Origin: a virus
Lineage: Duplodnaviria > Caudoviricetes
DNA: 64,000 bases
Direction: 5' to 3' (one strand)
IMG/VR virus record: IMGVR_UViG_3300029305_002015
Span: 1 to 64,000 of that record
Shown here: piece by piece, positions 18,253 to 58,866 of the stretch
How positions within the stretch are numbered: the first letter of the stretch is position 1
Layout: the number at the start of each line of letters is the position of its first letter
Made by a program: the position numbers and the translations under genes
The notes under the pieces: generated by a model
Seen by the model: the letters and a program-made list of their open reading frames with translations, nothing else
Databases searched by the model: none
What the model was told of the DNA's origin: nothing

Positions 18253-18292
18253 AAAAATAAAGGTGGGGTTTATCGCCCCACCTTTATTTTTT
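18251..18292. terminator. Bidirectional intrinsic terminator
   Basis: Exact inverted copy of the 7171-7210 terminator, between convergent genes. Confidence 0.85.
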
Positions 18293-18596
18293 ATTCAATT
18301 GGCTCATTTATGATATCAGTATCATCTACGATATCATCCCCAGGATATGGATCAATATCATCCATAGGAATTTTCTCTCCTAAGAATTCATGTTCCTCAC
18401 ATTCACTATTCACCATATTGATCAAAGCTGCAAGCATAGTAGTTCCCATTTCAGCCATGGTTTCAAAGTCCTCACGATCCTTTGCATCTAGATCAGGATC
18501 TTCTTTAATCTCCATAATATCGTGTATGAATGCTTCCAGTTTCATAGCAGCTTGCTTGCATAATCCTAATGGAAGTTTGAATTCAGTATTTTCCAT
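18291..18596 (-). CDS. Acidic hypothetical protein (101 aa)
   Basis: SD AAGGAGGT; co-oriented downstream of the SF2 helicase. Confidence 0.7.
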   Translation of the reverse strand: MENTEFKLPLGLCKQAAMKLEAFIHDIMEIKEDPDLDAKDREDFETMAEMGTTMLAALINMVNSECEEHEFLGEKIPMDDIDPYPGDDIVDDTDIINEPIE

Positions 18597-18632
18597 AACT
18601 ATAACCTCCTTTACTTCAGTTAGAATATATGA

Positions 18633-42700: not shown

Positions 42701-43519
42701 AGACTGATGAATCCTTCTGGTATCCATACTTTACCTGATGATGATAACTCTAACTCGTTCATTTCTTCTGAATGGGTACGTAGAAACTTAGTTGGTGTAA
42801 CTAAGGGTGAGTCTGCTACTGCAGGTGGTAACCCCAATAAGGTTGCAACTCTTCGTTCTACTTTCATGGATCCTGTTGTATTCATGCGTCAGATTGGTAC
42901 CACTATTGCTATTACCTTTGAACATGAAGATCGTAGTGGTGATACACCTACTACATTGAACGTCAATGGTACTGGAGCTGCTAAGGTCCTGTTTGCCGGT
43001 GGTCCTCTATCTACTGGTATGATTGGTAAGAATCATACTCACATGTTCGTATTCGATGGAGAAAACTGGAGACTCATTAACCCTGTACCTGGTACTGGTA
43101 TTGGTGGTCCTGATGGTATTACCATTGGCCCTGGTACTCCTCCTGGTGAAGATGATCCTGAAGATCCTGAGAATCCCACTCCTGAGATGATCATTAACCA
43201 AGATACTGGTCACATTGGATTTACAATAGTTGGTGATAATGGTGCTGATGATGATGGCCAAGTTGATGAAGTATGGGTTACCTTACAATATGCTCCTAAG
43301 GCTGGTGGTGTAGAGGTTACTCTTGCTGAGGAAGATACTGCATGGGCAGTCAAGTTTGGTGATGGTACAATCCGTAGAGTCACGACACCTGTTGTTAGGG
43401 AAGTGAATGAGACTAGCGCCATTATCCAGTTTACTCTCATGGATGTATATCCATCTAACTCTCCTTGTCATCTACTCTATCGTACTAATAAGGCATGGAT
43501 CAATATTAAAGAACTATAA
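39725..43519 (+). CDS. Tail fibre protein (1264 aa)
   Basis: HxxxxxNPHxVT repeats, QIGLGNVNNTSDMDKPIS, RIATTEFV, ALSANMGR repeats, two FDGxNWRLxNP modules. Confidence 0.8.
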   Translation: MGQLKDKRIVQSRVWLEPNPSPIPQYDYDYTYPISVYEAIKRNMDDNATNLSDELDSIYRLINEKQNIIEAGIPGNVMTWTGTRGNIGSIEILKMINSDPSLRSHQKLVSERAIGDILDSKVSAGVFNAHINETSIHVTDIEKNRWNSMAPLSTLHSHINNIAMHITEAERGRWNNKADQSFVDDHVYNINNPHNVTAHQVGTYSRKEIDNMFENLRESFFNYLNIYWDDRQSKAELVEYHATNWNPNYVLEYSDSLPEVENNDSTYFALKPATDYKINESQDCIIYIKRPGMIWQEVGFQTMDVGDMVIRYPDTAMYVWVQGRFMGLFTGASGGSGSNGSDGEDGSAGGTGGNSDMMWRPVIDETTGTLTWVKSKSSDPPGPYVIKGKDGYNPIKGIDYNDGKDGVGVPPGGMTGEVLVKMTDENFETTWKNIIDVLGDLIISGGGLPAGIISWDMIKGRPEWYNELGDNEDGFITQRAATRQFEIVNNSISELLEKIIGNGGLDSVKEDLYAHINDFSNPHRVTTAQIGAVSVATFTEHVQNFHNPHNVTAQQIGLGNVNNTSDMDKPISNAVQEALDDILDKIGIVTGNVSGINYVDTVNWSDHNTTLTFIYKDGTEVDVQIPITDIFNNIYFDPVEGELVIVLPDGNENRIDISAMIKVYSGSMSKNIQVEVSTDNIIKASILPNTIGEDELKVSVHLPGSPTTTTQPVTDRSTRIATTEFVRNQVIDNLISYETDRALSANMGRILNQRKVDIEDIMEIINDLEAIDVIDNLESTNSLAALSANMGRYLDLTKAPRVHTSSSPSTFGRATISLFGHARASDIDPLMDGTVFRGTDDGYYARADHRHPTDSSRAPVHFPDVTNGIDSFTGEPKTTVPPDDSNDTRIPTTSWIRRNAVGVQMGECDSDSYAVNKIVVLRSDFMEEPVFMRQTGSTVSVTFLEDDLAEDTVFMDVQGSGPAMVVFGGLPIVNGMIKANHTYTFTFDGTNWRLMNPSGIHTLPDDDNSNSFISSEWVRRNLVGVTKGESATAGGNPNKVATLRSTFMDPVVFMRQIGTTIAITFEHEDRSGDTPTTLNVNGTGAAKVLFAGGPLSTGMIGKNHTHMFVFDGENWRLINPVPGTGIGGPDGITIGPGTPPGEDDPEDPENPTPEMIINQDTGHIGFTIVGDNGADDDGQVDEVWVTLQYAPKAGGVEVTLAEEDTAWAVKFGDGTIRRVTTPVVREVNETSAIIQFTLMDVYPSNSPCHLLYRTNKAWINIKEL

Positions 43520-43536: not shown

Positions 43537-46500
43537 ATGGCACTGATTAACAAACGCACCGGTTTCTATGGTTTCACTGCTGATGGACTCGGTGGGATTA
43601 AGAGCGATAAGACTGGTAGTGTTAAAAAATGTATCATTTCTATTGCATATCAAGTGCATTTGAGAAATGTTAGATTTAGTATCTCTGGCGGTGCCGATGA
43701 TTGGGGTGCTCAAATGGGGGATGGGTCCATCATCCCCCTCTCCAACCCCAATACGTTGTACGTAAACCGTGATAGTGCTATTGTTGAGTTTGACATGGCT
43801 ACGGCTTACGCCGCCAATTCCCCTTGTGCATTAGTATACAGAAGTGATACTGCTGCATTTAAAGTTGTTGAAACTGATGATGGATCTGAAGTATATGAAA
43901 ATACTTTAAGTGGTCACTTTGCATTTACCGTTGAAGGTTATGGTGGTAAGAGTTATGACCTCGGATATGTAGATCGTGTTCTTGCTACTATTCCTTTCCC
44001 TGTACAAGTATCTGATGTTGAATTCAGTATTAGTGCAGGTGATGATCACTGGGGTGCTAGAATGGGTGATGGATCTATCATTCCATTAGTCAATCCTGAG
44101 GTTTTAGTCACTAATGCTGATAATGCTGTTATCAAATTTGAAATGACTCAACCTTATCCCTCTAACTCCCCCTGTATGATTGTATACAGAAGTCCTGAAG
44201 CATCTTTCCACCTGGAAGTTGTAGTTATTCCTCCTGAATATGTTCCTGTAACAGATATTACTGAGGTTCCTGAATCTCTTGTTGCAGGTACATCTGTAGA
44301 CTTGTCTCCTTGCTGTGTAGCTCCTACTGATGCTACTGTTCAGGGTATCTCTTGGATGGTAATGAGTGGTCCTGCTAAAGTTGAAGGTGATACCTTAACT
44401 ACTACTGGCCAGGGAACTGTTGTTCTGAAAGCAACTGTCGCAGGTGGTAAAACTGAAGAGGGTGAAGACTTTACTAAAACATTCAATATTCCAGTAAAGG
44501 CTAATAAGATTACAATCTTGGCTCATCCTACTCAGGAGACTACCTTGACTCATGGAGTTGTTCGTGGTAACTTAACTGTTATTGCTAAATCTGATACTGG
44601 TGTAATCAGTTATAAGTGGTATCAGAATAAGATCAATTCTTATACAAATGCTACTCCTGTTCATAATGGTGCCAAATCTAGTTATACATTCCCTGTGGAT
44701 ATTAGTGCCGGCATCCATTACTACTTCTGCGAGATTAGTAGCCCTGGTGCAACTAGTGTAAGATCTAATATTGCCAAGGTAAATGTTTTAGTAGAACTTG
44801 ATTCTGTAACTATTATTCCTGAAATTAGTTCTATGCTTATCACTTCTACTCAGAAGTTTGATATTACTCATTTACCTGAAGATGCTCATAAACCTCAGAT
44901 TGCTTGGACTTCTAGTGATCATAACGTTGTCCAGATTGATGAGGAAGGTAATGCACTGGCAGTTAACCAGGGTTCCGCGGTGATTACCGCGACAACCCTT
45001 GATGGAAGATATAGTGATAGTATCAAGATTACTGTTCCTGCATATGTCTCTGTAACTAACATCACTGGTTTAATTACTACTCTATCAACTGGTGTCTATA
45101 GTTCGTTAGTTGGTACAGTAGTTCCTTCTAATGCTACAGAGAAATCTATCCAATGGGCAATTATTGACCAGGGTACTACTGAGGCAATAATTAGTAACAA
45201 TAGACTGTATGCATCTAAGGCTGGTACAGTTAGATTGAAAGCAACCATTATCAAGGGTATTTCTCCTACTCAGGATTTCATTAAGGAATTCTCTGTAATT
45301 GTTACTAAAGCATTTATTGCTGTAACAGATGTTACCTTAGTAGATTTCCCTGTTCCTATCAGATGTGACCAGACTGCAATGGTAAAGGGTAAAGTTACTC
45401 CTGCAGATGCAGATTATACGGATATCATTTGGACTATTAGTCAGCCTGGTTCAACTGGTGCTACTCTAGTAGATGGAGTTATTAGTTTTACTGATCCCGG
45501 TACTGTAATATTACTTGCTACTATTCTTAATGGTAAGAGCCCTTCTGTAAACTTTACTAAAGAATTCTCTATTAAGATTAATGATCCTTGGGTAGCAATT
45601 GATCATGTAGAGTTGACTCCTACTGAGTATGACCCTAACCCGACAAATGGTGAAGCTATTAAATTAACTGCTATTGTATATCCTGAAAATGCAACAAAGA
45701 AAGATGTCATCATGAAAATGCTTGATGACAGTGTTGCAAAAGCTACATTTGATGCAGCAACTCAGATGCTTCAAGTTAATCCTAAGAATATGAAGCCTAC
45801 TGATGAGCCTGTTGTAATGATGGAGCTAACTGTAATCGATGGATATACTGAGGGTAGAGATTATGTAGTAACTCATAATGTCCGTATTATTCCTCCTGCT
45901 CCTGAGGATGAATATGTTCCTATTGATCGTATTGATCTAGTATATCCTGAACCAATGAGATGTCATTATCCTGTTCTATTAGAGCGGTTTACTGTATATC
46001 CTTGGAATGCTTCAGAAATCAATGCTAGATTTAGATCTCAGAGAGCTCAAGAATATGGCGGTGCAGATAACATCATTTTCAATCCTAATGAATATGCATT
46101 TAGCCATACTCAAAAGAAAGAATTCTTTGATTGGGGATTGGATGAAAACTATCTGTTCCCATATGACCCTGGTAAAATTAATCTAAACCTAACCGTTGTT
46201 AAGGGTTTAGGTCCTGAACCTGGTCAGGATTATATACGAAACTTTGAACTCGATATGCTTCCTCCTTATATTGCAGCTAAGGATATCTCCAATATTCCAA
46301 TTGAAGTTCCTGTAGGTAAGGACTTTATCCTCTCTGGTGAAGTCGAAACTCAAGGAGGTATTGGATACCATAATCCTACATGGGATGAGGAAGTGCCTAG
46401 CTTCGATAATATTATTTGGAGAATTGGTGATGACTACTTCGATACTGATGAATATCCTAATAGGGCTAATGCAGTATTGAAGGGTGAGAATGGTAATACT

Positions 46501-49500
46501 CTATACTGTAATAGGTCTGGACAATTTACTATCCAAGCATATATCGAGAATGGTAAAGCTGATGCTGTAAAGTGGTATGATAAGACTCAAATTGGTGAGC
46601 CTTTCACTAAACTCTTTACGATTAAAGCTGTCAGTGATACCACTTATAACAAAGCGATTGTAACTCTTACTCTTAATACTGGTACTAAAGTTCGTGTATA
46701 TTCAATGGGTGATCTGAATAATCTTTGTAATGATTTACCATCTGATACCACGATTACCATTAATGGAACACCATTCAGGAAGGATCAAGTTGTTGGAGTA
46801 AGTTTCTGGGAAGAAAGTTATGTAACTGATTCTACTGTTGCAATCAAGGATATTTCTCTTGATAAGATTGAACTAGAACCTTACGAACTTATTGCTCCTG
46901 AAGTAGAAGTAGAGTCATTTGATGGAATTACTCCTAGTAATGATAGTGATGGTTGTATTACTATCATGGATACCAAGAGTGCATTCTACGGTATGAAGAT
47001 CTTACCTGACAATGTATATCTACTTCCTGATGGTACTATTATCAGATATTATGACTCTAAGAGTTACTTTACTACTGATGGATCTGGAACTATCACCGGT
47101 TTAACTCCTGAGGGTAAGGCAATGTTAAATCTGCCTATTCCTTCTATTATCGATGGTGAAGAAATTACTGCTATTGGTAGTAATGCATTTGATGGTGCAA
47201 CATTCTCAATTGTGCTTATTCCTAAAACTGTAACTATCATCGGAGCTGGTGCATTTAACAATTGCTCTAATCTTACCACTGTTATCATTGATAATGGTAT
47301 TGAAACTATTGAAGATGGAGCATTTGCTGGTTGTGATGATCTGATTAATGTTTTCTATACTGGATCTGAAGAAGATTGGAATGAGATTGATATCTCTAAC
47401 ACAGATGATTCTAATGCTGTATTAATTAATGCAACTAAAGAATTTGAATATGATATTAATCTGGCAAATTCTGTCAAATTCATGATCGATGAAGTTGAAT
47501 ATACTGCACTAAATGGTATGACTTGGGAAGAGTGGGTAAATAGTGAATTTAATACTAAAGGATTTACTTCCAATGGTGCTAATATCACTGAAACTGTTGC
47601 TGATGAAACCATGTATGTTGCAGTTAATGAAGAAGATGGAATGAGAGTATTATCTACTGATATTATCAATGCAAATCACCACTATGTTACTGGTACTGCT
47701 GATTCTACCCATAGCCCTGATTTTGCAGCTCTTAATATTGGTGATGGTGATGATGTTATTCTTAACCTTAAATATGCTCATGACATCTTCAAAGTAGATC
47801 CTTCCATTATTCAGATTCCTGATTCTTTTGTAAGATATGATAATGGATGGGTTGGCATTCCTGCTGGTACTATCTTAAGTACCTCTGGTAGCTTAATTGT
47901 ACCTAACCCTGAATATGGTGCAACTAGTTTCCATGTAACGGGTATTGTTACCTATTCTGATGGAACACCGTTTGTTGGAGCAAAGGTTCGTGCTATGATG
48001 GGAACTCAGCAAGTTGGTGCAGAAGCTACTACATCTCCTGAAGGTAAATACACTATTAAGAATCTACCTATTGGAAATTACAGGTTGATTGCCGATAATG
48101 GCTATGGTGATACTGTCGCAACTGATTTTATGATTGATGGTGAAACTGAAATTGTTGACCTGAAATTCTCTACTCTTTATTATGAAGCATCTCTAACAAT
48201 TGCCACTAAAATTATGGATAATCAGAAACTCAGTGACATCAGTATTAGTGGTATTGCGTTAACTGTTGATGATAAAGAAGTAGCTGGTAAATTCTCGTGG
48301 GTAACAACCGATGATGAATTCGATACTTCTTATTCTACCAGCGATGCTTTATGGAAATTCACTCCTAATAATACCAATAGGTATCTACCCGTATATGGTA
48401 CTGTAACATTTACTGTGTTATCAAGTATCATTAAGAAAGCTCCAAGTCCTGTAACTGATATATTGATTCATAATGGATCTCGTAAATCTCCTACATGGAA
48501 TGATTATGATTCTGATCAATTAACTATGGGCGGAGATACTTCTGGAACTGACGCTGGTATGTATTATACCACATTTACTCCTAAGGGTTTATTCACTTGG
48601 GAAGATGGAAGTCAGAAGGAAGTAAGCATTTCCTGGGGCATTTATATGCCTTTCCATGTTACTAAGAGTAACAGGGGAACGGTTGGATATGATTCTGATA
48701 GCTCAGACTTTACCATGAAGGAAACCTTCATCTCTAGTGGTATAATGTATGCACCTACTAGTATGGATATCCATGTATTTGATAGCTGTACACATCTAAA
48801 GACTTTATCTATTCCTGGAACAATGACCGAAATTTCTGAAATGGCATTCGACCAGTGTTCTGGATTGACTAAAGTTGTTATCAATGAAGGTGTATCTATC
48901 ATTGGTGCATGTGCTTTCCAGCAATGTAGTTCACTAACAGAAATTACAATTCCAGCATCTTTAACCCAAGTTGGTTCTAATGCTTTCTCTGGTTGCAGCA
49001 AATTATCTACTGTGAATTATGGTGGAACTAAAGAGCAGTGGAATAAACTTAAGGTAAATATTTCTAGTGGTAACAGTAGACTTACTGGAGCTACTATTAA
49101 ATATACTGAAGAAGTTGCAACTGTTGAGGAAGAGGGTGAAGAGGCACCTGTTATTGATCCTACTACTCCTTCTACTGGTGGTAGCACTACTGTTGTACCT
49201 GAAGATACTGAAGAAGATGTTGTTGAGGATAAAGAGCCTAACTATGATGTATATCCGATGCTATATGAAATCTCTATTCATGGTATAGTATTTGATCATA
49301 CTACTAGTAGGATTTTATTCCCTGATGGTACTTGTATCTTGAATGCTTCCAAAATTCTTTTACCTCACAATTACACCTATGATCCTGATACAACATATAT
49401 CGACCCTGTCAGTGTTGATGAGTCTGATATTTTGATAAAGATGCCTTATGGTGTTTACATGAATTCTTCTAAACAGATTTGTGTTCTTGATCTAAAGAGT

Positions 49501-51279
49501 TTGGTTAGAGGAATGACTGCTGTAAACACTGAAACTGGTAATTTCCTCAGACTTACTGATGGATCCCTAATTCATGAATCTGGTATTGTTTACACATCAG
49601 CAGGTAAGCTTTATGATATTTATCAGAGAGCTATCAATGAAAACTCTTACTTCAATCTTACTGGTGGTGTAAACTTTACTCCAAGTAACGCATCTAACAA
49701 ATCCATTGATTGGACATTTGATGAAATTCCTGAAGGTACTGTAGTTGCAACATTGCCTACAAATGGCGGAGACACTCTGCTTATTATTGCAGGTAATAAA
49801 TCTGGTTACATGATTCTAGATGCATATGTCACTAATGGTTATAGTAGTAGAGATGACTATGAACAAAAACTTCTAATTGCTATTGGTGATGTATCTGATG
49901 AAGAGGATCGGTTGATTGATATCAACTTTGGTTCTGTAACTAGAACTGTATACAAGGGCTACAGTAGTACCAATACAACTTTAACAATTGATCTATTTGG
50001 TACAAGTGAGGAGATCGAAGATCTTGCTGCCGAGGATATTGAATGGTCAATTACTGGTGGTTATAAACCTAGCTATGGTGGTGGATATGGTAGATATGGT
50101 GCAAGTCCTACGGTGATCTATCCTAGGAGTGATAATCTATCAGCATATCTCTATATTAGTAGTTACCAAGAAACTGGTAGTACTATAACCGTAACCGTTA
50201 CTTGTGGCGACTTTAAGAAAGAACTGAAAGTAAATGTTGCTACGAAGTATAGCTATGGTGAACCTTATGTCGGATCTCTTCGTAACTTTGGTAGAAACTT
50301 TATTAATCTGAAATCTATAAACCATATTCCTAGTACAGTAAATGGTGATGACTGTTTAAGAAACTTCCTCATGGGATGTACAAGCTTTAATCAGGCCATT
50401 ACTATTCCTGATAGCGTTGCTGGTGATAGATGTTTACAGTACTTCCTGAGAGATTGTACGAGTTTCAATTCTAAGGTTACTATTCCTGAGGAGATTTATG
50501 GTGAAGATTGCTTACATGGTTTCCTGTATGGATGTGAAAGCTTTAATAAAGCTATCACTATTCCTGAAGGCGTAACTGGTAATGGTTGTCTTGAGAGATT
50601 CCTCATGTGTTGTAAGTCTTTCAATCAGAATATCACTATTCCGGAAGGAATTCAGGGTGATGCATGTCTACGTAATTTTATGACTGAATGTCATGCATTC
50701 AACAGACCTATTAGAATTCCTGATGGTATTACTGGTGAAAATTCTATGGATCTATTTATGAGAGACTGTAATGCAATGGTTTCTAATGTAACTATTAGCA
50801 AACAAGCTGCTCGCAGTGTTGGCGTTAATGGTCAGACATTGTCTACTGTATTTAGTCAGTCCGATATGTTCATCAATGGTGTTCCTATTATTGGTGATGG
50901 TGCTAGACTCTTTATGCGTAAAGCATATAATGTTCTTGGAGCACCTCCTTATCGTAAATTAAGTACTGTAGAACCTGAGGATGAAGAATTCACCATTACA
51001 GTAAACCAGGTTGAAGGTGTTAATGTAACTACTGATCTTGATGCTGCATTTGAAATTGATACTGTAGAAGTTACAGTTGAAATTACAGATGAGCTAGTTA
51101 CAGACGTTCAACTTTCTATTGATGATCCTGATATTGAGCTTGTGTCAATCGGTGAGAATAAATACGAGTTCACAATGGGTATCAAGAATGTTGTAATTGA
51201 TGTAACTGTAACAAGACGTGAACCTGATCCTGAACCTGTAGAACCAACTCCTGAAGAAGGAACCGACACAACTGAATAA
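43537..51279 (+). CDS. Giant tail-associated adhesin-like protein (2580 aa): Ig-like repeats and BspA-type LRRs
   Basis: VxPxNATxxxIxW Big_2-like repeats, IPxxVTxIGxxAFxxC LRRs, carboxypeptidase-regulatory-like segment, C-terminal 26-aa Cys-rich LRRs. Confidence 0.8.
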   Translation: MALINKRTGFYGFTADGLGGIKSDKTGSVKKCIISIAYQVHLRNVRFSISGGADDWGAQMGDGSIIPLSNPNTLYVNRDSAIVEFDMATAYAANSPCALVYRSDTAAFKVVETDDGSEVYENTLSGHFAFTVEGYGGKSYDLGYVDRVLATIPFPVQVSDVEFSISAGDDHWGARMGDGSIIPLVNPEVLVTNADNAVIKFEMTQPYPSNSPCMIVYRSPEASFHLEVVVIPPEYVPVTDITEVPESLVAGTSVDLSPCCVAPTDATVQGISWMVMSGPAKVEGDTLTTTGQGTVVLKATVAGGKTEEGEDFTKTFNIPVKANKITILAHPTQETTLTHGVVRGNLTVIAKSDTGVISYKWYQNKINSYTNATPVHNGAKSSYTFPVDISAGIHYYFCEISSPGATSVRSNIAKVNVLVELDSVTIIPEISSMLITSTQKFDITHLPEDAHKPQIAWTSSDHNVVQIDEEGNALAVNQGSAVITATTLDGRYSDSIKITVPAYVSVTNITGLITTLSTGVYSSLVGTVVPSNATEKSIQWAIIDQGTTEAIISNNRLYASKAGTVRLKATIIKGISPTQDFIKEFSVIVTKAFIAVTDVTLVDFPVPIRCDQTAMVKGKVTPADADYTDIIWTISQPGSTGATLVDGVISFTDPGTVILLATILNGKSPSVNFTKEFSIKINDPWVAIDHVELTPTEYDPNPTNGEAIKLTAIVYPENATKKDVIMKMLDDSVAKATFDAATQMLQVNPKNMKPTDEPVVMMELTVIDGYTEGRDYVVTHNVRIIPPAPEDEYVPIDRIDLVYPEPMRCHYPVLLERFTVYPWNASEINARFRSQRAQEYGGADNIIFNPNEYAFSHTQKKEFFDWGLDENYLFPYDPGKINLNLTVVKGLGPEPGQDYIRNFELDMLPPYIAAKDISNIPIEVPVGKDFILSGEVETQGGIGYHNPTWDEEVPSFDNIIWRIGDDYFDTDEYPNRANAVLKGENGNTLYCNRSGQFTIQAYIENGKADAVKWYDKTQIGEPFTKLFTIKAVSDTTYNKAIVTLTLNTGTKVRVYSMGDLNNLCNDLPSDTTITINGTPFRKDQVVGVSFWEESYVTDSTVAIKDISLDKIELEPYELIAPEVEVESFDGITPSNDSDGCITIMDTKSAFYGMKILPDNVYLLPDGTIIRYYDSKSYFTTDGSGTITGLTPEGKAMLNLPIPSIIDGEEITAIGSNAFDGATFSIVLIPKTVTIIGAGAFNNCSNLTTVIIDNGIETIEDGAFAGCDDLINVFYTGSEEDWNEIDISNTDDSNAVLINATKEFEYDINLANSVKFMIDEVEYTALNGMTWEEWVNSEFNTKGFTSNGANITETVADETMYVAVNEEDGMRVLSTDIINANHHYVTGTADSTHSPDFAALNIGDGDDVILNLKYAHDIFKVDPSIIQIPDSFVRYDNGWVGIPAGTILSTSGSLIVPNPEYGATSFHVTGIVTYSDGTPFVGAKVRAMMGTQQVGAEATTSPEGKYTIKNLPIGNYRLIADNGYGDTVATDFMIDGETEIVDLKFSTLYYEASLTIATKIMDNQKLSDISISGIALTVDDKEVAGKFSWVTTDDEFDTSYSTSDALWKFTPNNTNRYLPVYGTVTFTVLSSIIKKAPSPVTDILIHNGSRKSPTWNDYDSDQLTMGGDTSGTDAGMYYTTFTPKGLFTWEDGSQKEVSISWGIYMPFHVTKSNRGTVGYDSDSSDFTMKETFISSGIMYAPTSMDIHVFDSCTHLKTLSIPGTMTEISEMAFDQCSGLTKVVINEGVSIIGACAFQQCSSLTEITIPASLTQVGSNAFSGCSKLSTVNYGGTKEQWNKLKVNISSGNSRLTGATIKYTEEVATVEEEGEEAPVIDPTTPSTGGSTTVVPEDTEEDVVEDKEPNYDVYPMLYEISIHGIVFDHTTSRILFPDGTCILNASKILLPHNYTYDPDTTYIDPVSVDESDILIKMPYGVYMNSSKQICVLDLKSLVRGMTAVNTETGNFLRLTDGSLIHESGIVYTSAGKLYDIYQRAINENSYFNLTGGVNFTPSNASNKSIDWTFDEIPEGTVVATLPTNGGDTLLIIAGNKSGYMILDAYVTNGYSSRDDYEQKLLIAIGDVSDEEDRLIDINFGSVTRTVYKGYSSTNTTLTIDLFGTSEEIEDLAAEDIEWSITGGYKPSYGGGYGRYGASPTVIYPRSDNLSAYLYISSYQETGSTITVTVTCGDFKKELKVNVATKYSYGEPYVGSLRNFGRNFINLKSINHIPSTVNGDDCLRNFLMGCTSFNQAITIPDSVAGDRCLQYFLRDCTSFNSKVTIPEEIYGEDCLHGFLYGCESFNKAITIPEGVTGNGCLERFLMCCKSFNQNITIPEGIQGDACLRNFMTECHAFNRPIRIPDGITGENSMDLFMRDCNAMVSNVTISKQAARSVGVNGQTLSTVFSQSDMFINGVPIIGDGARLFMRKAYNVLGAPPYRKLSTVEPEDEEFTITVNQVEGVNVTTDLDAAFEIDTVEVTVEITDELVTDVQLSIDDPDIELVSIGENKYEFTMGIKNVVIDVTVTRREPDPEPVEPTPEEGTDTTE

Positions 51280-51386: not shown

Positions 51387-51869
51387 ATGGCTGATAATTC
51401 TCAGATTAAACAACATGTAAGTCTTGAGGAGCGTAATAGATGGGATAAGCTCGTTGAAGACTTTGCGAATCACCTTGGTTCAGGTGGTACTAATAACCAT
51501 GCTATGGCAAATGGTACTGTTCCTGGTTTTAGCCAGAATAACTATACCACTACAGAGAAGAATAAACTTGCAGGCATTCAGGAAGGTGCATTGAATAACC
51601 CTCACCCTGCAACTCACCCTTATACTATGATCACAGGTCTTAGTACTGTTGCTCATACTGGTAGCTATACTGACCTGCTTAACATTCCTAAAACCTTTAT
51701 TGCAGGTGGCGGTAATGCTGATACTGTTGGTGGTATCAGATTCACTGTTGGACCTACTTCACCTGGTTCTCCTGTAAATAATAAAGATGTTTGGTTTGAT
51801 ACCGCTACCAAGCTTGTTAAAGTATATACTGGTAATACCTGGGTACCTTTTAACGCAGTATATGCATAA
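51387..51869 (+). CDS. Short tail-fibre-like protein (160 aa)
   Basis: HVSLEERNRWD, YTTTEKNKLAGI, HPATHP, VAHTGSYTDL, GGNADTVGG fibre motifs. Confidence 0.7.
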   Translation: MADNSQIKQHVSLEERNRWDKLVEDFANHLGSGGTNNHAMANGTVPGFSQNNYTTTEKNKLAGIQEGALNNPHPATHPYTMITGLSTVAHTGSYTDLLNIPKTFIAGGGNADTVGGIRFTVGPTSPGSPVNNKDVWFDTATKLVKVYTGNTWVPFNAVYA

Positions 51870-51972: not shown

Positions 51973-53280
51973 ATGGCTGTTGCAGTTGGAAATGCTATTA
52001 ATGTGGCTGATATTGCTAATTTATTTAATAGCACAGTTATTGCTAACATTACAAGTGGAGCACATCATCTAAACAATCCTCCTATGGATGGTTCATATTT
52101 TTGTGTTCCATCTAATATGATGGATGACATTAATAATTTACCTACCCCTAGTTTTGGTGTTAGTGGTGGTAAAATTACTGCATCATCAATTGCTACCGCT
52201 CTTATTAATGTTACTCAAAACTTAACTAGAGTTGGTACATTCAGTTATGTACGTACATATCGTACACTTCGAGAAATTCGTAGTAGATATGATCCTCTAT
52301 TACAAAGTACATATAGAGGATATGGTGTTGGATATGTTATTACAAATACCAATACGGTTCGAGCTCAAAAGAATGGTAAAGTTATATTTACTAATAGCTA
52401 TGTTCGACAGCTTGGATCTACTACAGGTGCTACCGCATTAAATTATTCACCTGCTAGCTACTTTGTAGTTAGTGGTGCAACTATTACTGGATTAACCGCA
52501 ACCGGTCTTGCAGCAACATCTATTGTAGTACCTGCTGCTATCAATGGTGTTACCATCACAGCCATTGGCAGTAATGCATTTAGAGGAAGTGTGGCAAGAA
52601 CGATTGAAATTCCTTCTAACATTACAAGTATTGGTAATTCTGCATTCCAGGCTTGTACAGCTCTAACAACGTTAACAATCTATGGTTCTTCTACATCTAT
52701 AGGTCAGTATGCATTCTATCAGTGTACAGCATTAACTACAGTAACATTCTATGGCACCATATCTAGTATTGGTATGTATGCATTCAGACTTTGTAGTGCA
52801 TTGACTGATGTTAATTTCTATTGTAATATTCAGACCATTGGTCAATATTCGTTCTACCAGTGTAGTGCAATTAAATACATTAGATTGCCAAGCTCTGTAA
52901 CAACGATTGGTACATATGCGTTTTATCTGGCTAATGCTATTACTACAGTATACTATGAAGGATCTCAAACTAACTGGAATGCATTATTGATCCAAGCTCA
53001 AAATGGTAATATTACAACTTGTACAAAGAGTTATAATTTTACTATTCCTCAGCCTCCTCAAACAACTACTGCTGGTGCAAATGTAAGTCATACAGTTGTT
53101 GCAAACAATCCGATTACTGTTGCTGCATTAAATGCTTTATGTTCTGCATGTTTACTGGCATGGCAGCGCACATCTAAATATCATTATAGCTATACAAATG
53201 CTACATGTCATAATGACTGTCATAGTAGTTGTCATTATGATTGTCATAATGACTGTCATAGTGACTGTTATAGTGATTAA
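51973..53280 (+). CDS. Tail-module protein with BspA-type LRR and C-terminal (C-[HY]-x-[DS])6 tail; putative radical SAM substrate
   Basis: SIGxYAFxxC LRRs; ends CHNDCHSSCHYDCHNDCHSDCYSD-stop; upstream of three radical SAM genes. Confidence 0.75.
   Translation: MAVAVGNAINVADIANLFNSTVIANITSGAHHLNNPPMDGSYFCVPSNMMDDINNLPTPSFGVSGGKITASSIATALINVTQNLTRVGTFSYVRTYRTLREIRSRYDPLLQSTYRGYGVGYVITNTNTVRAQKNGKVIFTNSYVRQLGSTTGATALNYSPASYFVVSGATITGLTATGLAATSIVVPAAINGVTITAIGSNAFRGSVARTIEIPSNITSIGNSAFQACTALTTLTIYGSSTSIGQYAFYQCTALTTVTFYGTISSIGMYAFRLCSALTDVNFYCNIQTIGQYSFYQCSAIKYIRLPSSVTTIGTYAFYLANAITTVYYEGSQTNWNALLIQAQNGNITTCTKSYNFTIPQPPQTTTAGANVSHTVVANNPITVAALNALCSACLLAWQRTSKYHYSYTNATCHNDCHSSCHYDCHNDCHSDCYSD
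53206..53277 (+). repeat. 12-bp tandem repeat, six copies (TGT-YAT-N6)
   Basis: tgtcataatgac tgtcatagtagt tgtcattatgat tgtcataatgac tgtcatagtgac tgttatagtgat. Confidence 0.95.
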
Positions 53281-53303
53281 CTAAATAAGGAGGAACTATC
53301 ATC

Positions 53304-54053
53304 GTGAAATATCTCACATTACCATTGGATATTGGAGTTATTGAAAATTTTAATCAAGAAGATATAATGATTGATATGTCAGATTTACAATTCCCCTGTA
53401 AACCTGAATTAAAAATAAGATCTGCATTTATCTTCATTCGGAATGTTGATTTAAATATGAATTTGGATTTTTCTAAATGCTCCTTTAAAATGAAGGAAGA
53501 ATTCTTATTAATGTATCTAACAGGGAATATTGGTGTAAATATTCCCTGTATACGTGATACATGGATTGATATTCTTCTATATAGATATAATAAGGACAAT
53601 TTACTTATTGGAATCATGGATTCAAAAGAGATAGAGAAATTCAGTCTGAAACATAATGATCTAATTACAGAAGTATATACATTGATTGCATCTCTACCTG
53701 TAATGGTCATATATCAATATTCTAAATCTCCTGCAACATATGCCGAATTAATAAAATTTGATGGAGAATTTGAAGAGTCTGATTATGATAAAATCAATTT
53801 CAGTAATTTTTCAAGACTTACTGAAAGTAGAAGATTTGGAGGAGTAATGATTGATGTTGATAAATACCCACAGAAATTTTATAAACATTATTTTGCTGGG
53901 AATGATCAAATATCAATGGCTAGGTTAAATGAGAATCTTCCTTTGATGAATCTTCTAAATATCTTCTTTTCTCCTAAAGATACTCAAGAACGCTTTATTA
54001 GCGGATTAAATGATTTACTAACTACGGAGGAGGTAAGTGAAAATAATGAGTGA
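53304..54053 (+). CDS. Hypothetical protein in the radical SAM cluster (249 aa)
   Basis: GTG start after AAGGAGG, 23 bp after the CHxD gene. Confidence 0.75.
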   Translation: MKYLTLPLDIGVIENFNQEDIMIDMSDLQFPCKPELKIRSAFIFIRNVDLNMNLDFSKCSFKMKEEFLLMYLTGNIGVNIPCIRDTWIDILLYRYNKDNLLIGIMDSKEIEKFSLKHNDLITEVYTLIASLPVMVIYQYSKSPATYAELIKFDGEFEESDYDKINFSNFSRLTESRRFGGVMIDVDKYPQKFYKHYFAGNDQISMARLNENLPLMNLLNIFFSPKDTQERFISGLNDLLTTEEVSENNE

Positions 54054-55308
54054 CCATATGTACAATGAACTACAATTGAAAGTTCAACTTCCTCAAATGA
54101 CAATGGATAATTATTTTCTAAGTAAAAATGATTTATCAATATCTCGTCATTTGAGTACTAAGCAAGTTATAAGAATTCCTGCTGCTGAAGTAAAGGAGAT
54201 TCTAGCTGAAAAAGAATATGACATGCCTGATTTCTTGGTCATGTTTGAAGATGGTTTAGCTGAATCTGATGTATCTAAGTATGCTGATATGAGCGATGGT
54301 TATCAAATGTCTGAATACTTCAGTAAAGCAGATTTTTATATTCCTACATTTGATTACTTTAGGGCTGTTAAGTTTGGTGGAATTGATTGTATCATGAATA
54401 TTTATAATGGTAGACAATGTAAGATTCCATTTAAACAGGTTCTAAGTAAGATTAAGATTGAAACTCCTGAGGAACAGGAAGCACATACTGATGTATATCC
54501 TTTCCCAATGATCACAAAGGATACTATTAATTATACGAAGTTCAAGAATGTATCTTATTGTGATAATCTTCGTACTCAGACATATATGTATAGATTTCCT
54601 GCTCTATGTTTAAATCTCCCATATAAGTATTATAAATCTCAGAATATCCCTGAGAATATTTACTTCTGGGATGTTGATACTAAAGAGTTAGGATTTGCTG
54701 GACATTCTACAGATGAAATCTTTGAATGGTTTGAGGATATTTGTAAGCATGGTTTACAGAAACCCTTATATTTCCAAATCTCTCAAGGACAAATTGTTTC
54801 TGCTACAGATGAGGATTACATTAAACTATTAATTGCTCAATATCTGAAGATTCCTACAATTCCAGTTGTAGCATATATGTTAAATAACTCTGCTAAGAGT
54901 AGTATGCTTATTAGTATGAGACCTTGTGATATTATAGGAGCTCGCACAGGTAGCTTAAATACTGATAAAGAAACTTTAACTCTTATCAATGAAATCTGTT
55001 CTCCATATTTTATCTTCTTTAATTCAAACCTTACTGATTCTTTATCAGTAAATGAAAATGTGCATGAGGATATGGAAAATAAAGATGGCCCAGTTTATAA
55101 TCAAATATTTGATTCAACTCATAATGATTTAGATTATAATGAATCATATCTATTACAGAATGATGATAGTAATATATTTGATGATAATCTTGGTGATCCT
55201 ACTCCTTCTTATATTCTCCATGAAAATATGAGGAATGATATTCAGAAACAAATCAATGAAGATATAGAAAGATCATTAAAGCAATTGGAATTGTTATCAG
55301 GTCAGTGA
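54037..55308 (+). CDS. Hypothetical protein in the radical SAM cluster, possible degenerate ParB/Srx-like segment
   Basis: Overlaps the upstream stop, GGAGG SD (start 54037 or 54046); DICKHGLQKPLYF...LLIAQYLKIPTIPV loosely ParB-N-like. Confidence 0.6.
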   Translation: MKIMSDHMYNELQLKVQLPQMTMDNYFLSKNDLSISRHLSTKQVIRIPAAEVKEILAEKEYDMPDFLVMFEDGLAESDVSKYADMSDGYQMSEYFSKADFYIPTFDYFRAVKFGGIDCIMNIYNGRQCKIPFKQVLSKIKIETPEEQEAHTDVYPFPMITKDTINYTKFKNVSYCDNLRTQTYMYRFPALCLNLPYKYYKSQNIPENIYFWDVDTKELGFAGHSTDEIFEWFEDICKHGLQKPLYFQISQGQIVSATDEDYIKLLIAQYLKIPTIPVVAYMLNNSAKSSMLISMRPCDIIGARTGSLNTDKETLTLINEICSPYFIFFNSNLTDSLSVNENVHEDMENKDGPVYNQIFDSTHNDLDYNESYLLQNDDSNIFDDNLGDPTPSYILHENMRNDIQKQINEDIERSLKQLELLSGQ

Positions 55309-55316
55309 TAAATACA

Positions 55317-55366
55317 ATGATATAGATTATATGGCATTGCGCCATATAATCTATATCATCTTTTTT
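55317..55366 (+). terminator. Intrinsic terminator
   Basis: ATGATATAGATTATATGGC-attgc-GCCATATAATCTATATCAT plus T tract. Confidence 0.8.
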
Positions 55367-55409
55367 AACAGCTTAAGTAAAAATCTTATTTTATCAAGGG
55401 GGAATAAAA

Positions 55410-56390
55410 ATGGAGTTAATTATTAAACCTACTGGTAGATGTAACTTTGCATGTACATTCTGTTCAGCAGGAGATATGACTATTCAACATCCTAAGGATG
55501 ATAAAGTTCCTGAACAAATTAAAGACTTAATCAATCGAATGAACCCTACAAGATTAATTATTACTGGTGGGGAACCTTTAATGGTATCACCTGAATATTA
55601 TTATGAACTTCATGAAATGGTACCTGATGCTTATATTAGTCCTACGACTAATCTTAAAGATTTCTATCTAAATCCTGAAAAATGGGCTCCTCTATTTAAT
55701 GAGGAATGGTTTAAAATTACTACATCATTTAACTATGGTGATAGTAGACGATGGGATAAAGATACAGTATTTACAGAAGAAATGTTTATTAAGGTAATGG
55801 ATAAATTCAGGGAGTATGTACCTAATAAATCTCTTCCAATGTTTATTGCTGTAATTGATGAAAGTAATGCTGATAAAGTTATGGATCATATTTTATTAGC
55901 AAAGCGGCTTGATTCTATGTGTAAACTTAATAGAGCTATTGGTGTTGGATATCAAGAAGTTGGTTATCAGCGTTATAAAATTATGAAAGATTATCTTGAT
56001 ATTATTGATGCTGGCTTAGAAAAATATGAATGGAATTGTGCTAATAGAGCAAATGGTACATGTCCATACAATATTCATCATACATGTGAATCTACAATTA
56101 GGTGTGTATATGTAGCTTGTGATGGTACATTACATGTAGGAACATGTGATGAAAGAGTATCTATGGGATATGAAATTCCTGAAGATAAACTAATCAATCC
56201 TTCATATATTCCTAAATATGAGCATATTAACCCATCAGATTATATTAGTCCCAAATGTGCATATTGTGAGTTATTCAATTTATGCAATGCATGTGGAACT
56301 AATAGAATTGAAGCTAAACTGGATCCAAATTATTGTGATGAAATGAAGAAGCTTGAGTCAAGAATAATTGAATCTGGTTGGGCATTATAA
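55410..56390 (+). CDS. Radical SAM enzyme with Cys-rich SPASM-like C-terminus
   Basis: CNFACTFC (CX3CX2C), TGGEP, C-terminal CAYCELFNLCNAC...C. Confidence 0.9.
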   Translation: MELIIKPTGRCNFACTFCSAGDMTIQHPKDDKVPEQIKDLINRMNPTRLIITGGEPLMVSPEYYYELHEMVPDAYISPTTNLKDFYLNPEKWAPLFNEEWFKITTSFNYGDSRRWDKDTVFTEEMFIKVMDKFREYVPNKSLPMFIAVIDESNADKVMDHILLAKRLDSMCKLNRAIGVGYQEVGYQRYKIMKDYLDIIDAGLEKYEWNCANRANGTCPYNIHHTCESTIRCVYVACDGTLHVGTCDERVSMGYEIPEDKLINPSYIPKYEHINPSDYISPKCAYCELFNLCNACGTNRIEAKLDPNYCDEMKKLESRIIESGWAL

Positions 56391-56402
56391 AGGAGGATAT
56401 AA

Positions 56403-57224
56403 ATGTATAAGCGTAAAACCATCTATGCATTATTAACTAGAAAATGTAATCTCTCCTGTCCACATTGTGATGTCCATAATATTGTAGATGATTTTGATAA
56501 AGAGAAGTTTCTTAGTAGGTTAATTCAAACAGAAGGAAAGATCATTCTGTTTGGAGGTGAGCCTACTTTATATCAGGATCGTCTATTTGATATTGTAAAT
56601 GAATGTAAAAAAGCTGGTAGAAAAATTGGATCTATATCTACCAATCTGATGATTCTTAATGACCAATTATTAGCTCTATTTAAAGAAATTGGTAGTGTTG
56701 CAACGTCATGGAATCCTAATAGATTTACACCCATTCAATATGATATATGGTATAAGAATTGTATCAATCTTGCTATAACAGTGAATGTTAAACCAACCCT
56801 AATGATCACATTAGATAATGATCTAATGGAGATGGGTGTTGATGAATTTCTAAAAGTTGTTGATAATTGGGATCCAAATGTATTTAAGAAGATTAAAATG
56901 GAACATCTCAATTGTATTGATAACACTCCAGAATATTTTGATCGAGTAGATGATTTCCTATGTGAATTATATTCTAAATGGAGATCTGATATTTATAATG
57001 ATATCAATGGACGGATCAAGAATTGGTGGTTTGATTGTACAGGAGTATGTACAATTGAGCCTAATGGAAATATTATTCCTAAATGTCCACATGATGTAAA
57101 TCCAACTATTCCTGAAGAGTGTTATTCATGTGAACGAGCGGATGTATGTAGACCTTGTGTATTACAACATCATTGCTCATTCCCAAAAAAGTTTGCTAAA
57201 TTAGTTTCTGATGGAGGTAATTAG
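56403..57224 (+). CDS. Radical SAM enzyme with short SPASM/twitch-like C-terminus
   Basis: CNLSCPHC, FGGEP, C-terminal CYSCERADVCRPC...C. Confidence 0.9.
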   Translation: MYKRKTIYALLTRKCNLSCPHCDVHNIVDDFDKEKFLSRLIQTEGKIILFGGEPTLYQDRLFDIVNECKKAGRKIGSISTNLMILNDQLLALFKEIGSVATSWNPNRFTPIQYDIWYKNCINLAITVNVKPTLMITLDNDLMEMGVDEFLKVVDNWDPNVFKKIKMEHLNCIDNTPEYFDRVDDFLCELYSKWRSDIYNDINGRIKNWWFDCTGVCTIEPNGNIIPKCPHDVNPTIPEECYSCERADVCRPCVLQHHCSFPKKFAKLVSDGGN

Positions 57225-57225
57225 A

Positions 57226-58368
57226 GTGACATTTAAAAACTTTCCAACATATATGACAGAAGATGAATTTATCCAATTCTGGAAGGAATACTTCGAAGAA
57301 CATCAGATGAAGGAGAAAGAAGATGTAAACATTTATGTACACTATCCATGGTGTAGAAGTGTATGTAAATTCTGTATCTTTGGTGCTTTAAAACTAGAAG
57401 AGAATCGTCATCTGGTGGAACCGTATGAACGAGCAACTTTAAGAATGATGGAACGAATGGCTCCAATTATAGAAACTCAAAAGGTTTCTGAGTTGTTCTT
57501 TGGTGGTGGTACCCCTAGTTTATGGACTATGGAATCATTAAAAAGAATGACTGAAATCTTACCAAATTATGATAAGATTGGGATTCGTCGTACAGAGATA
57601 CATCCATCTGATATGACTGATGAGCGAATGGAATTTATGATTAATACGATGAAGTTTCATCATATCAGTATTGGAGTTCAGTCATTTGATAAAGCATCTT
57701 GTAAAGGTCAGAACAGAATTCATATTTCTCCAGAACAACTTGCTCATGTTGTTAAGACGTTTCAGAAAGCAGGTTTATATGTAAACTGCGACCTAGTAGC
57801 ATTATTCAATGGACCTGATGAGAAGAACTGGGATATCTTTAAAGAAGATCTACGAATAATGGAAACAGTTGTCCATCCTGATGCAATGACTGTATCTCCA
57901 AATTATCGAGAAGATTATTATAATAATTCTATTAAATTCCGTAAGATCATCAAAGAGTTCAATGATACTCAAACTGGTGGGTATCATTTGAATTATGGAG
58001 ATCAGGCATTTTCTCTTGATAAGATGGATATTATTCGTCATATGGATAGACCTTATATTTTCCTTACTGATGAATATGCAAGATTTGTATTAGATCATCC
58101 AGTACTTAGTGAAACTAAAACTAAGGAAGAAATGGATAATCGAAATATGATTGCTTTTGGTGGTATTGATGGTGAAGGTGCATTTAGTAGAACTGCTGAA
58201 TATCACTACATCAATGGTATATACATCCCTCAAGACGATGAATTCCATTATAGATGTAAAAAGAAATCAATGTTTGAAAGATTGAATATCAAGAATGATA
58301 ATGATTTCTATAATAATGAAATTCATATTGGTCAGGGATTTGTACTTCCACCTCCAACCCGTGAATAA
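57226..58368 (+). CDS. HemN/HemW-like (class C) radical SAM enzyme
   Basis: YVHYPWCRSVCKFC, FFGGGTPSL, ISIGVQSF, VNCDL; GTG 57226 after GGAGGT (track start 57211). Confidence 0.85.
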   Translation: MTFKNFPTYMTEDEFIQFWKEYFEEHQMKEKEDVNIYVHYPWCRSVCKFCIFGALKLEENRHLVEPYERATLRMMERMAPIIETQKVSELFFGGGTPSLWTMESLKRMTEILPNYDKIGIRRTEIHPSDMTDERMEFMINTMKFHHISIGVQSFDKASCKGQNRIHISPEQLAHVVKTFQKAGLYVNCDLVALFNGPDEKNWDIFKEDLRIMETVVHPDAMTVSPNYREDYYNNSIKFRKIIKEFNDTQTGGYHLNYGDQAFSLDKMDIIRHMDRPYIFLTDEYARFVLDHPVLSETKTKEEMDNRNMIAFGGIDGEGAFSRTAEYHYINGIYIPQDDEFHYRCKKKSMFERLNIKNDNDFYNNEIHIGQGFVLPPPTRE

Positions 58369-58405: not shown

Positions 58406-58612
58406 ATGGAATTTACTGAAAGAGATCAGCAAGCTATTAAAGAATATCTTGGATATATCCGTGCTGGTTCTAAACGTATCTATGAAATTGATGATAGTAG
58501 ATATCGTGATGAAATTGCAAAGTTGATGCAAGAGGATGTAGATGCAGGTAGATCTACTGGTCATGAACGTAGAGCATTACGTGAATATAATGAACGCTAT
58601 AGAAAGGATTAA
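58406..58612 (+). CDS. Small hypothetical protein (68 aa)
   Basis: AAGGAGGT SD. Confidence 0.7.
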   Translation: MEFTERDQQAIKEYLGYIRAGSKRIYEIDDSRYRDEIAKLMQEDVDAGRSTGHERRALREYNERYRKD

Positions 58613-58623
58613 GGTGAACTAAT

Positions 58624-58830
58624 ATGGCTAAGAAACATGTTATCAAATATTGGGCTAGATTACTTCAGAAAGGAACTTTTAAAGAATCCGAAGTTCCTGA
58701 AGATATCAGAGCTGAAGTAGTAGCAACATCCTTATCTCTTCCTCCTCGTGAAAGTATTTTCGATGATACGAAACCTGTTGTAGAGGAAGATGCTGAATCT
58801 ACTAACACTAGTGAACCTACAGAAGAATAA
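58624..58830 (+). CDS. CD1375-like small phage protein
   Basis: YWARLLQKGTFKESEVPEDIRAEV resembles the CD1375 pattern found near Firmicute phage tail modules. Confidence 0.5.
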   Translation: MAKKHVIKYWARLLQKGTFKESEVPEDIRAEVVATSLSLPPRESIFDDTKPVVEEDAESTNTSEPTEE

Positions 58831-58833
58831 AAG

Positions 58834-58866
58834 AATAAGAGGGAGCACAATGCTCCCTCTTATTTT
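58834..58866. terminator. Bidirectional intrinsic terminator
   Basis: AATAAGAGGGAGCA-caa-TGCTCCCTCTTATT between convergent genes. Confidence 0.85.

Follow-up and report, generated by a model that had tools for sequence, protein, structure and literature searches.

A gene block of a jumbo phage encodes a leucine-rich repeat (LRR) protein with a C-terminal tract of Cys-His units, together with three radical S-adenosylmethionine (radical SAM) enzymes, two of which are candidates for modifying that tract. The block occupies positions 51973-58368 (+ strand) of the window, i.e., the 64,000-nucleotide stretch analyzed here, which represents the first 64 kb of the 100,955-bp IMG/VR viral contig IMGVR_UViG_3300029305_002015 (CheckV completeness ~37%) and includes a GroEL-like gene. 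It begins with the 435-aa LRR protein (51973..53280), the presumed substrate, followed by the partner protein u249 (249 aa, 53304..54053), u423 (423 aa, 54037..55308), and the radical SAM enzymes rSAM1 (326 aa, 55410..56390), rSAM2 (273 aa, 56403..57224), and a HemN-like enzyme (385 aa, 57211..58368). The block is a derived member of a widespread uncharacterized cassette and a member of neither the HXS, PapB, CXXX-repeat, anSME nor HemN family. In our judgment, rSAM1 and rSAM2 rather probably modify the tract of the LRR protein, through a chemistry that we propose by analogy and at a virion location that we propose mainly from gene order.

Linkage of a C-terminal Cys-His tract with radical SAM genes

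The LRR protein ends in CHNDCHSSCHYDCHNDCHSDCYSD-stop, i.e., in six C-[H/Y]-x-[D/S] units (CHND, CHSS, CHYD, CHND, CHSD, and CYSD-stop; residues 412-435, 53206..53277, + strand) encoded by a 12-bp tandem repeat. No reading frame of the 100,955-bp contig contains another run of four or more CXXX units. A complete 292-kb phage contig, in which the whole block is syntenic, encodes the single full-length relative of the protein that was found (43% identity). The tract of this relative (CHTV, CHNN, CYRD, CHDD, CHDD, and CYSD-stop) retains the six units and the terminal CYSD; Asp stands at i+3 from Cys in five of the six units in the window and in four of six in the relative. Because the tract is kept at 43% identity, and because a relaxed form of the motif occurs in none of 773 open reading frames (ORFs) from 397 kb of unrelated viral loci, it is no chance feature. 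The window and the 292-kb relative alone demonstrate conservation of the tract, not an independent linkage to the enzymes. A 50-aa alternative-frame ORF over the tract (53132-53284, +), with Ile/Val/Met runs derived from the 12-bp repeat, is almost certainly spurious.

From the enzyme side, rSAM1 homologues with 31-34% identity are encoded by the cultured jumbo phages RSF1, RSL2, FLC6, FLC8, S13, DT01, Atu_ph07, and Phosso, where they sit in multi-radical-SAM clusters with cupin-like and 2-oxoglutarate (2OG)-oxygenase-like genes. A filter for at least five CXXX units had returned no Cys-repeat protein in these carriers, a false negative that was overturned by a relaxed scan of all ORFs for at least two C-[H/Y]-x-x units among their 40 C-terminal residues. 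The relaxed scan covered 83 loci, or 84 with the window's own. After removal of false matches, 61 CH-tailed proteins remained at 58 of the 84 rSAM1-selected loci, many of the other loci being truncated. The typical tailed protein comprises ~100-300 aa and ends in (C-H-x-x)x3-R-x-R-R-stop, as exemplified by RSF1 ORF071, Atu_ph07 gp170, and DT01 PA10_00065. Three units with the consensus C-H-[S/T]-S are present in 54 of the 61 proteins and an RxRR end (RGRR, RSRR, RARR, or RNRR) in 57; six units ending in CYSD occur only in the window and the 292-kb relative.

The reverse search, employing the DNA pattern for (CHxx)x3-RxRR-stop, retrieved at least 120 viral contigs, against a chance expectation of far less than one match as estimated from the degeneracy of the pattern. 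Among the matches listed, radical SAM relatives are present at 98 of 120 tail-motif loci; of those spanning at least 8 kb (n = 75, among the matches listed), 67 carry such an rSAM and 69 a u249-family gene. At most tail-motif loci without these rSAMs, the radical SAM genes belong to a second subfamily, the '358-aa family', in which CX3CX2C is present in 141 of 147 members. The linkage persists although gene order varies: L057, L058, and the window (L numbers denote individual loci) have the tailed gene upstream, whereas in L061-L063 it lies downstream. Up to a dozen radical SAM paralogues accompany one tract of 12-24 residues. Despite shared ancestry, the association appears to lie far beyond chance in both search directions, and these counts bear out the functional link between tract and radical SAM genes that had been proposed from the window alone. 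The case that this sequence-only reading had set against itself, enzyme homologues without a CHxx-tailed neighbor, did not materialize: when three-unit tails are counted, carriers almost always encode a CH-tailed protein nearby.

The same arrangement was found in prokaryote genome bins, where ~37 of 47 matches (L257-L303) combine an RxRR-type tract with radical SAM and u249 neighbors. The carriers are mostly Bdellovibrionota (Bdellovibrio, Bacteriovoracaceae, Halobacteriovoraceae), including contigs of 1.3-2.8 Mb; the ~10 remaining matches, in high-GC genomes, were rejected as chance matches. By this distribution, the cassette appears to be common to large phages and predatory bacteria. Two other scans were discarded: a metagenome scan for CHxD-CHxD-CYxD-stop returned one 114-aa ORF, which has no radical SAM genes around it and probably reflects a DNA repeat that arose by chance, and a degenerate scan for at least five C[HY]xx units returned mostly low-complexity repeats in giant-virus bins that are not ORF ends.

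Several tracts are laid out differently. At L134 (6503-7183), many CHSSCHSN-type units precede RGRR, L070 (7379-7933) has five tract units, and in L060 (7386-8183) the CHTNCHSDCHSN tract is internal, with an additional Cys-rich and basic extension after it. Two tandem CH-tailed proteins (~100-140 aa) are encoded at L085, L091, L097, L113, L124, and many tail-motif loci; these loci carry several radical SAM copies of the 358-aa subfamily instead of the rSAM1-type array.

Compared with this family, the window protein has the scaffold with extreme C-terminal C-H-x-x units, and its locus combines an rSAM1-family enzyme with a single-copy u249; in place of three units and a terminal R-x-R-R, it has six units and a CYSD end. 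The window and the 292-kb relative are a rare variant: they have six units with Asp at position 4, lack RxRR as well as cupin and 2OG oxygenases, and add a HemN-like enzyme. Cupin-like and 2OG-Fe(II) oxygenase-like partners, which are frequent, though not universal, across the cassette family, gave no hidden Markov model (HMM) match in the 100,955-bp contig, which is ~37% complete, and may lie elsewhere. The HemN-like enzyme and u423 were found only with N/D-rich tracts, and the cupin and 2OG oxygenases mainly with Ser-type tracts. Enzyme content therefore appears to co-vary with tract chemistry, a pattern confounded by phylogeny.

Scaffold, enzymes and partner proteins

In the 435-aa protein, PF13306 (LRR_5/BspA) matched residues 196-320 with 121.8 bits (cut-off 27.7). 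The BspA-type LRR domain (~aa 180-345) separates two parts of a scaffold (aa 1-165 and 385-411) that corresponds to phrog_35144, of unknown function. BLAST matched a 205-aa LRR-free member (L058) to the protein in two blocks, one covering residues 1-162 (E 1e-7) and the other the final 60 residues (E 5e-7). When 34 divergent family members are aligned (mean column identity 13%), the sole invariant columns are C412, C416, and H417, with H413 and C420 nearly invariant (window numbering); the first three window units align with the family's invariant C, C, and H columns. Given the two-block match and this alignment, an LRR domain of roughly 230 residues appears to have been inserted into a pre-existing scaffold already bearing the tract. 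The earlier view of a core peptide fused to a probable virion protein is modified accordingly: insertion of the LRR domain into a tract-bearing scaffold replaces a simple fusion.

An AlphaFold model of the 435-aa protein (mean predicted local distance difference test score, pLDDT, 77) rendered the LRR part as a β-solenoid and the tract at low confidence. The LRR-free scaffold was modeled with fair confidence (predicted template modeling score, pTM, 0.73) as helices and a long β-hairpin. A structure search with the full 435-aa model matched only LRR proteins, including phage LRR proteins, and Foldseek comparison of the LRR-free scaffold model with the PDB gave no match at E <= 0.001. One candidate scaffold relative, a chain from the baseplate complex of phage Milano, was rejected (best VIA Z 5.1, within the noise range).

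All three enzymes belong to the radical SAM superfamily, exceeding the PF04055 gathering cut-off of 29.5 bits with 52.3 bits (rSAM1, also phrog_1802), 33.2 bits (rSAM2), and 55.1 bits (HemN-like). Near the N-terminus of rSAM1 and rSAM2 lies a CX3CX2C motif that is invariant in their relatives, and the C-termini of both are Cys-rich. Beyond C11/C15/C18, eight or nine cysteines are kept in rSAM1. Its invariant cysteines comprise C11/C15/C18 plus C218, C226, C246, C283, C286, C292, C295, and C309, including a CX2CX5CX2C; those of rSAM2, across 30 relatives, are C15/C19/C22 plus C212, C228, C240, C243, C249, C252, and C258, the seven C-terminal ones forming the canonical SPASM arrangement. As SPASM signature we took 7-8 C-terminal cysteines (C..G....C, then CX2CX5CX2-3C, then C) with two auxiliary 4Fe-4S clusters. 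The SPASM models Pfam PF13186 and NCBIfam TIGR04085 did not match rSAM1 and rSAM2, though the conserved cysteines fit this signature, by which both are likely SPASM members.

At least 290 proteins related to rSAM1 were collected, along with 312 matching IMG/VR stretches, and its closest relatives in ENA/Logan reach 64-77% identity; rSAM2 has 285 relatives at E <= 0.001. When compared with solved structures, the rSAM1 family profile was nearest to anSME (PDB 4K36, E 6e-8), followed by SkfB and SuiB, enzymes whose substrates are proteins or peptides. Single-sequence PDB searches of the enzymes were uninformative. Against the curated NCBIfam maturase families, rSAM1 and rSAM2 scored far under every cut-off.

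The best NCBIfam matches of the HemN-like enzyme were the HemN, HemW, ChuW, and STM4012 families at 67-77 bits, all far below the cut-offs; TIGR00538 (76.7 bits, cut-off 324.95), TIGR00539 (67.1 bits, cut-off 205.4), and TIGR04107 (71.0 bits, cut-off 400) each covered the radical SAM core only. In the PDB it matched HemN (2e-11) and NocN (8e-7). These scores place it as HemN-like by fold family and, as far as they can tell, as no equivalog of HemN, HemW, or the class C methyltransferases. Homologues were found only in L055 and L058/59.

Neither u249 nor u423 matched a family in Pfam or NCBIfam. The former corresponds to phrog_20767 (function unknown; family HMM E 1.7e-40), and its family is represented by one protein per locus at 64 of the 84 loci, including RSF1 ORF073, and by a gene at all 58 of the 58 tail-bearing loci; u249 thus appears to be the universal single-copy partner of the cassette family. 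Homologues of u423 are confined to the window's subclade (L055, L057, L058/59, and L060), and no PHROGs family matched it. ESM Atlas suggestions of citrate synthase for u249 (fragments at 0.80) and ParB_N for u423 (0.87) were sub-threshold and rejected.

The gene block and its surroundings

The six co-oriented ORFs reported after the tail-fibre genes in the sequence-only reading were all recovered on the + strand at the coordinates reported there, save for the start of the last gene, which lies at 57211 and not at 57226 and leaves the HemN-like gene overlapping that of rSAM2 by 14 bases. A conserved fibre block before the cassette begins with a 1264-aa tail-fibre protein (39725..43519, +) matching many tail-fibre and tail-collar PHROGs; L058 and L060 encode homologues of this protein, with 50-55% identity, upstream of the cassette. 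It is followed by the ORF of a giant 2580-aa fibre/adhesin-like protein with LRR segments (43537..51279, +), with homologous giants at the same position in L055, L058, and L060. Directly 5' of the CH-tract gene lies that of a 160-aa tail-fibre-like protein, g160 (51387..51869, +), with weak tail-fibre PHROG matches and homologues at the same position in L055 (80% identity), L060 (62%), and L058 (53%). The order fibre, giant adhesin, g160, CH protein, u249, u423, rSAM1, rSAM2 is kept in L055, L058, and L060. Megablast of the 51973-58368 block against cultured phages gave no match.

Between u423 and rSAM1, a hairpin of 19-20 bp followed by a T-run (55317..55359, +) is a candidate attenuator or terminator. 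The 292-kb relative retains it, the upper stem having changed in a compensatory manner (GGC/GCC to CCC/GGG), and this conservation suggests regulated read-through into the enzyme genes; as an attenuator, the hairpin may set the substrate-to-enzyme ratio. Two 68-aa ORFs (58406..58830, +), with 54% and 62% identity in the 292-kb relative, close the co-oriented unit, which ends at a strong bidirectional terminator-like hairpin (58832..58866; 16-bp stem, T-run on both strands). Beyond it lies, convergent to the cassette, the gene of a 634-aa GroEL-like chaperonin (58872-60776, -; phrog_5725, 4e-67), and just past that a RusA-like resolvase gene (60889-61476, +).

Known systems, competing explanations and significance

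The sequence-only reading knew of no characterized system of this kind. With respect to the cassette this holds: in the literature on tail modification of the RiPP (peptide synthesized ribosomally and modified post-translationally) type in phages, on CXXX repeats, and on SPASM in phages, no description of it was found, and papers on cultured phages list its genes merely as accessory proteins of unknown function. Radical-SAM maturation of repeat proteins, however, has been described for HXS (PMC13128918) and CrpC/CrpA (PMC13692751). In the HXS antiphage system (Li et al., Nat Commun 2026, PMC13128918), two radical SAM enzymes, HxsB and HxsC, act with HxsD to mature HxsA; the covalent change mapped in a repeat of HxsA amounts to +8 Da on SHRSS, and HxsA requires a signal peptide and a peptidoglycan-binding domain (PMC13128918). 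The phage cassette resembles HXS in that several radical SAM enzymes and a non-enzymatic partner are dedicated to one folded repeat protein with a His-centred repeat, most phage family tracts being C-H-x-S, which includes H-x-S. It differs in the invariant Cys register and extreme C-terminal position of the repeat and in its carriers, i.e., phages and predatory bacteria versus a Pseudomonadota defence island; the window variant, moreover, has Asp for Ser and is acidic. HxsC (TIGR03977) scored 28.9 and 27.1 bits against rSAM1 and rSAM2 (cut-off 267.9), no match of the window enzymes to HxsB (TIGR03978) was reported, and no homologue of HxsD (TIGR03976) was found.

CrpC, a SPASM radical SAM enzyme of Methanococcus voltae, installs ranthionine on the 29-kDa Cys-rich protein CrpA at C-X-X-Q/D motifs, CAVD being among those modified (PMC13692751). 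Here too, a SPASM enzyme would act on a large protein, and the C-X-X-Q/D spacing, with Cys before the acceptor, is the same as in C-H-x-D. CrpA, by contrast, repeats 17-residue units instead of back-to-back tetrads, lacks a His/Tyr register, and is archaeal and chromosomal. No specific sequence relationship to this archaeal system was found, though no search aimed at one was made. PapB, which cross-links six CXXXD motifs, accepts spacings from i+1 to i+7 (PMC12373016). The PapB/PapA (freyrasin) system thus likewise pairs six Cys...Asp motifs with one SPASM enzyme; the window tract displays repeated Cys followed by Asp/Glu, as PapB-type substrates do, and its i+3 spacing falls within PapB tolerance. 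PapA is, however, a short leader-core peptide with CXXXD, as opposed to CXXD with obligatory His/Tyr on a 435-aa protein, and the PapB family model NF047865 gave 23 bits with rSAM2, over the N-terminal 90 residues only (cut-off 340), and no match with rSAM1. In a different phage of 315 kb (L054, G002:C1:205000-224999; 10466-18734, minus), five radical SAM genes stand in a run (B12-type methyltransferase-like, twitch type, two PapB-like, and one other). The PapB-like radical SAM/SPASM genes directly precede a 167-aa protein with a long CHSN/CHSD tract, fibre-like genes being next; in this independent analogue, the enzymes belong to other subfamilies.

The CXXX-repeat system (TIGR04115 with TIGR04114/04116/04117) likewise places a Cys at every fourth residue beside a radical SAM/SPASM gene. 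It differs in its partner protein, while the window has only six units with position 2 fixed; the TIGR04115 maturase model did not match the window enzymes, and the window tract scored 12.9 bits with TIGR04117 (cut-off 50). The 292-kb relative carries a second, different cassette (L053, G001:C1:268000-287999; 9589-15619, minus), in which a 759-aa radical SAM protein matches TIGR04115 (1.2e-99), its CX3CX2C apparently split by an intein-like insert. This maturase is followed by a 316-aa Cys-rich protein and an 892-aa protein with a ~400-aa CXXX-repeat core; LRR and fibre-like genes lie beside this second cassette, which the window's 101-kb contig lacks. With anSME, rSAM1 shares the layout of a minimal radical SAM/SPASM enzyme of the kind that acts on Cys or Ser of a folded protein, but the match spans only the N-terminal 135 residues of rSAM1, the TIGR03942 score is far below its cut-off, and the window tract has no C/S-x-P/A-x-R motif. 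Triceptide maturases (XyeB, GrrM/OscB, FxsB, YhhB) cross-link aromatic-x-Asp/Ser triplets, and each window unit contains an [H/Y]-x-[D/S] triplet. Only weak N-terminal matches to the YhhB and AmcB models were obtained, and the invariant Cys has no role in triceptides.

Most likely, rSAM1 and rSAM2 would modify the six C-[H/Y]-x-D units post-translationally, with u249 or u423 possibly acting as a helper and the HemN-like enzyme adding a further step, e.g., one-carbon transfer. That the tract is the substrate we infer, and the link between enzymes and substrate appears well supported by the co-occurrence of their genes. By analogy, the preferred chemistry would be of the ranthionine type, with one intramolecular cross-link per unit from the Cys sulfur to the carbon adjoining the Asp carboxylate; a His/Tyr-centred link would rank next. 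Modification would leave the LRR protein ending in a compact knot, resistant to reduction and proteases and possibly metal-binding. The modified protein would belong to the tail-fibre apparatus, and the gene order argues for its location in the virion. A passage of the Atu_ph07 paper puts virion proteins in 'CDS 170-215'; the CH-tailed protein of this phage is gp170, RefSeq numbering agrees with that of the paper, and its place within the virion-protein range is suggestive only.

Several points weigh against modification of the tract by rSAM1 and rSAM2 as set out here. Shared ancestry among loci inflates the linkage counts, the virion location draws on gene order and that one indirect sentence, and any modification of the tract is putative throughout the family. 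Because rSAM1 and rSAM2 fall far below all curated maturase cut-offs, the chemistry is unreadable from homology. A Cys-to-Asp thioether leaves the strict His/Tyr at position 2 unexplained, and since most members have Ser at position 4, a carboxylate-adjacent ranthionine cannot be the family-wide reaction. The His-x-Ser repeat of HXS can take a different modification (+8 Da; PMC13128918), and Cys, His, and Asp also count among the classical ligands of metals. Finally, the wider family's cupin and 2OG oxygenase partners are absent from the window and from the available contig.

The most serious competitor, which we nonetheless regard as fairly unlikely, is that the tract is an unmodified metal or iron-sulfur site, serving fibre structure or as an electron donor, while the enzymes act elsewhere, e.g., on another protein, a nucleotide, or a cofactor. 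All four of Cys, His, Asp, and Tyr can serve as metal ligands, the strict His/Tyr at position 2 would fit ligand conservation, the RSF1 cassette adjoins dihydrofolate reductase genes, no curated peptide-maturase family was matched above its cut-off, and metal binding is suspected for CrpA as well, the closest analogue studied by experiment (PMC13692751). Against a mere metal site stand the constant position of the tract at the extreme C-terminus of an otherwise hypervariable protein, its one-to-one tie to SPASM-type enzymes and u249 in both search directions, and an enzyme set that shifts with tract chemistry; the profile-nearest SPASM relatives act on proteins or peptides, and metal binding and enzymatic modification are in any case compatible.

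We consider it improbable that the tract is a core peptide modified and then released as a cofactor-like or bioactive molecule, as with pyrroloquinoline quinone (PQQ) or mycofactocin, the scaffold being an oversized leader. Such a product would suit a conserved C-terminal core on a variable remainder, several radical SAM/SPASM enzymes, and oxygenases in most relatives, and the common RxRR end could signal processing; yet the window variant lacks that end, and the conserved core of the cassette includes neither a protease nor an exporter. The scaffold is confidently predicted as a folded domain, its gain of a receptor-type LRR domain in the window makes sense only if it has a function of its own, and the block's position at the end of a tail-fibre block is conserved. 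This last position also speaks against a phage counterpart of HXS defence, in which a matured effector would mediate superinfection exclusion or counter-defence at the envelope and not form part of the virion. HXS indeed employs two radical SAM enzymes and a small partner on an HxS-repeat protein (PMC13128918), the common family tract C-H-x-S contains H-x-S, and HxsC is among the best, though weak, NCBIfam matches of rSAM1 and rSAM2. Scores of ~27-29 bits nevertheless compare with HxsB/HxsC cut-offs of 268-370, HxsD is without a match, and the window tract is acidic and free of basic residues, unlike the DNA-engaging HxS repeats. Inspection of sampled family N-termini by eye, without formal prediction, revealed no obvious signal peptide and no peptidoglycan-binding domain, and a defence role of this kind seems very improbable.

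Modification of the tract by rSAM1 and rSAM2 remains our favored explanation, and the window variant is informative in this regard, as its tract and its enzyme set have changed in concert: Ser has given way to Asp, three units have become six, the HemN-like enzyme and u423 have been gained, and no oxygenases are found on the available contig. It offers a natural comparison for assigning the roles of the enzymes. The insertion of a receptor-type LRR domain into the scaffold would tie the tract to host recognition. A bolder picture, which we advance only tentatively, is that large phages and Bdellovibrio-like predators employ a dedicated set of radical SAM enzymes for chemically finishing the C-terminal Cys-His tract of a particle or cell-attack protein, elaborated here into six units on a fibre-tip LRR protein, each stapled through a thioether or a His-centred link and tailored by the HemN-like enzyme. 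On this picture, the LRR protein of the window would represent the first enzymatically cross-linked phage receptor-binding protein, along with a new protein-modification chemistry.

Radical-SAM maturation of whole proteins has only recently been demonstrated, for HXS and CrpC/CrpA, both in 2026. Uncultured phages in their hundreds carry the present cassette, as do cultured, experimentally accessible jumbo phages of Ralstonia, Burkholderia, Pseudomonas, Agrobacterium, and Sinorhizobium, and it is also present in the chromosomes of predatory bacteria. If our explanation is correct, the cassette would bring whole-protein radical-SAM chemistry into virus particles on a large scale.

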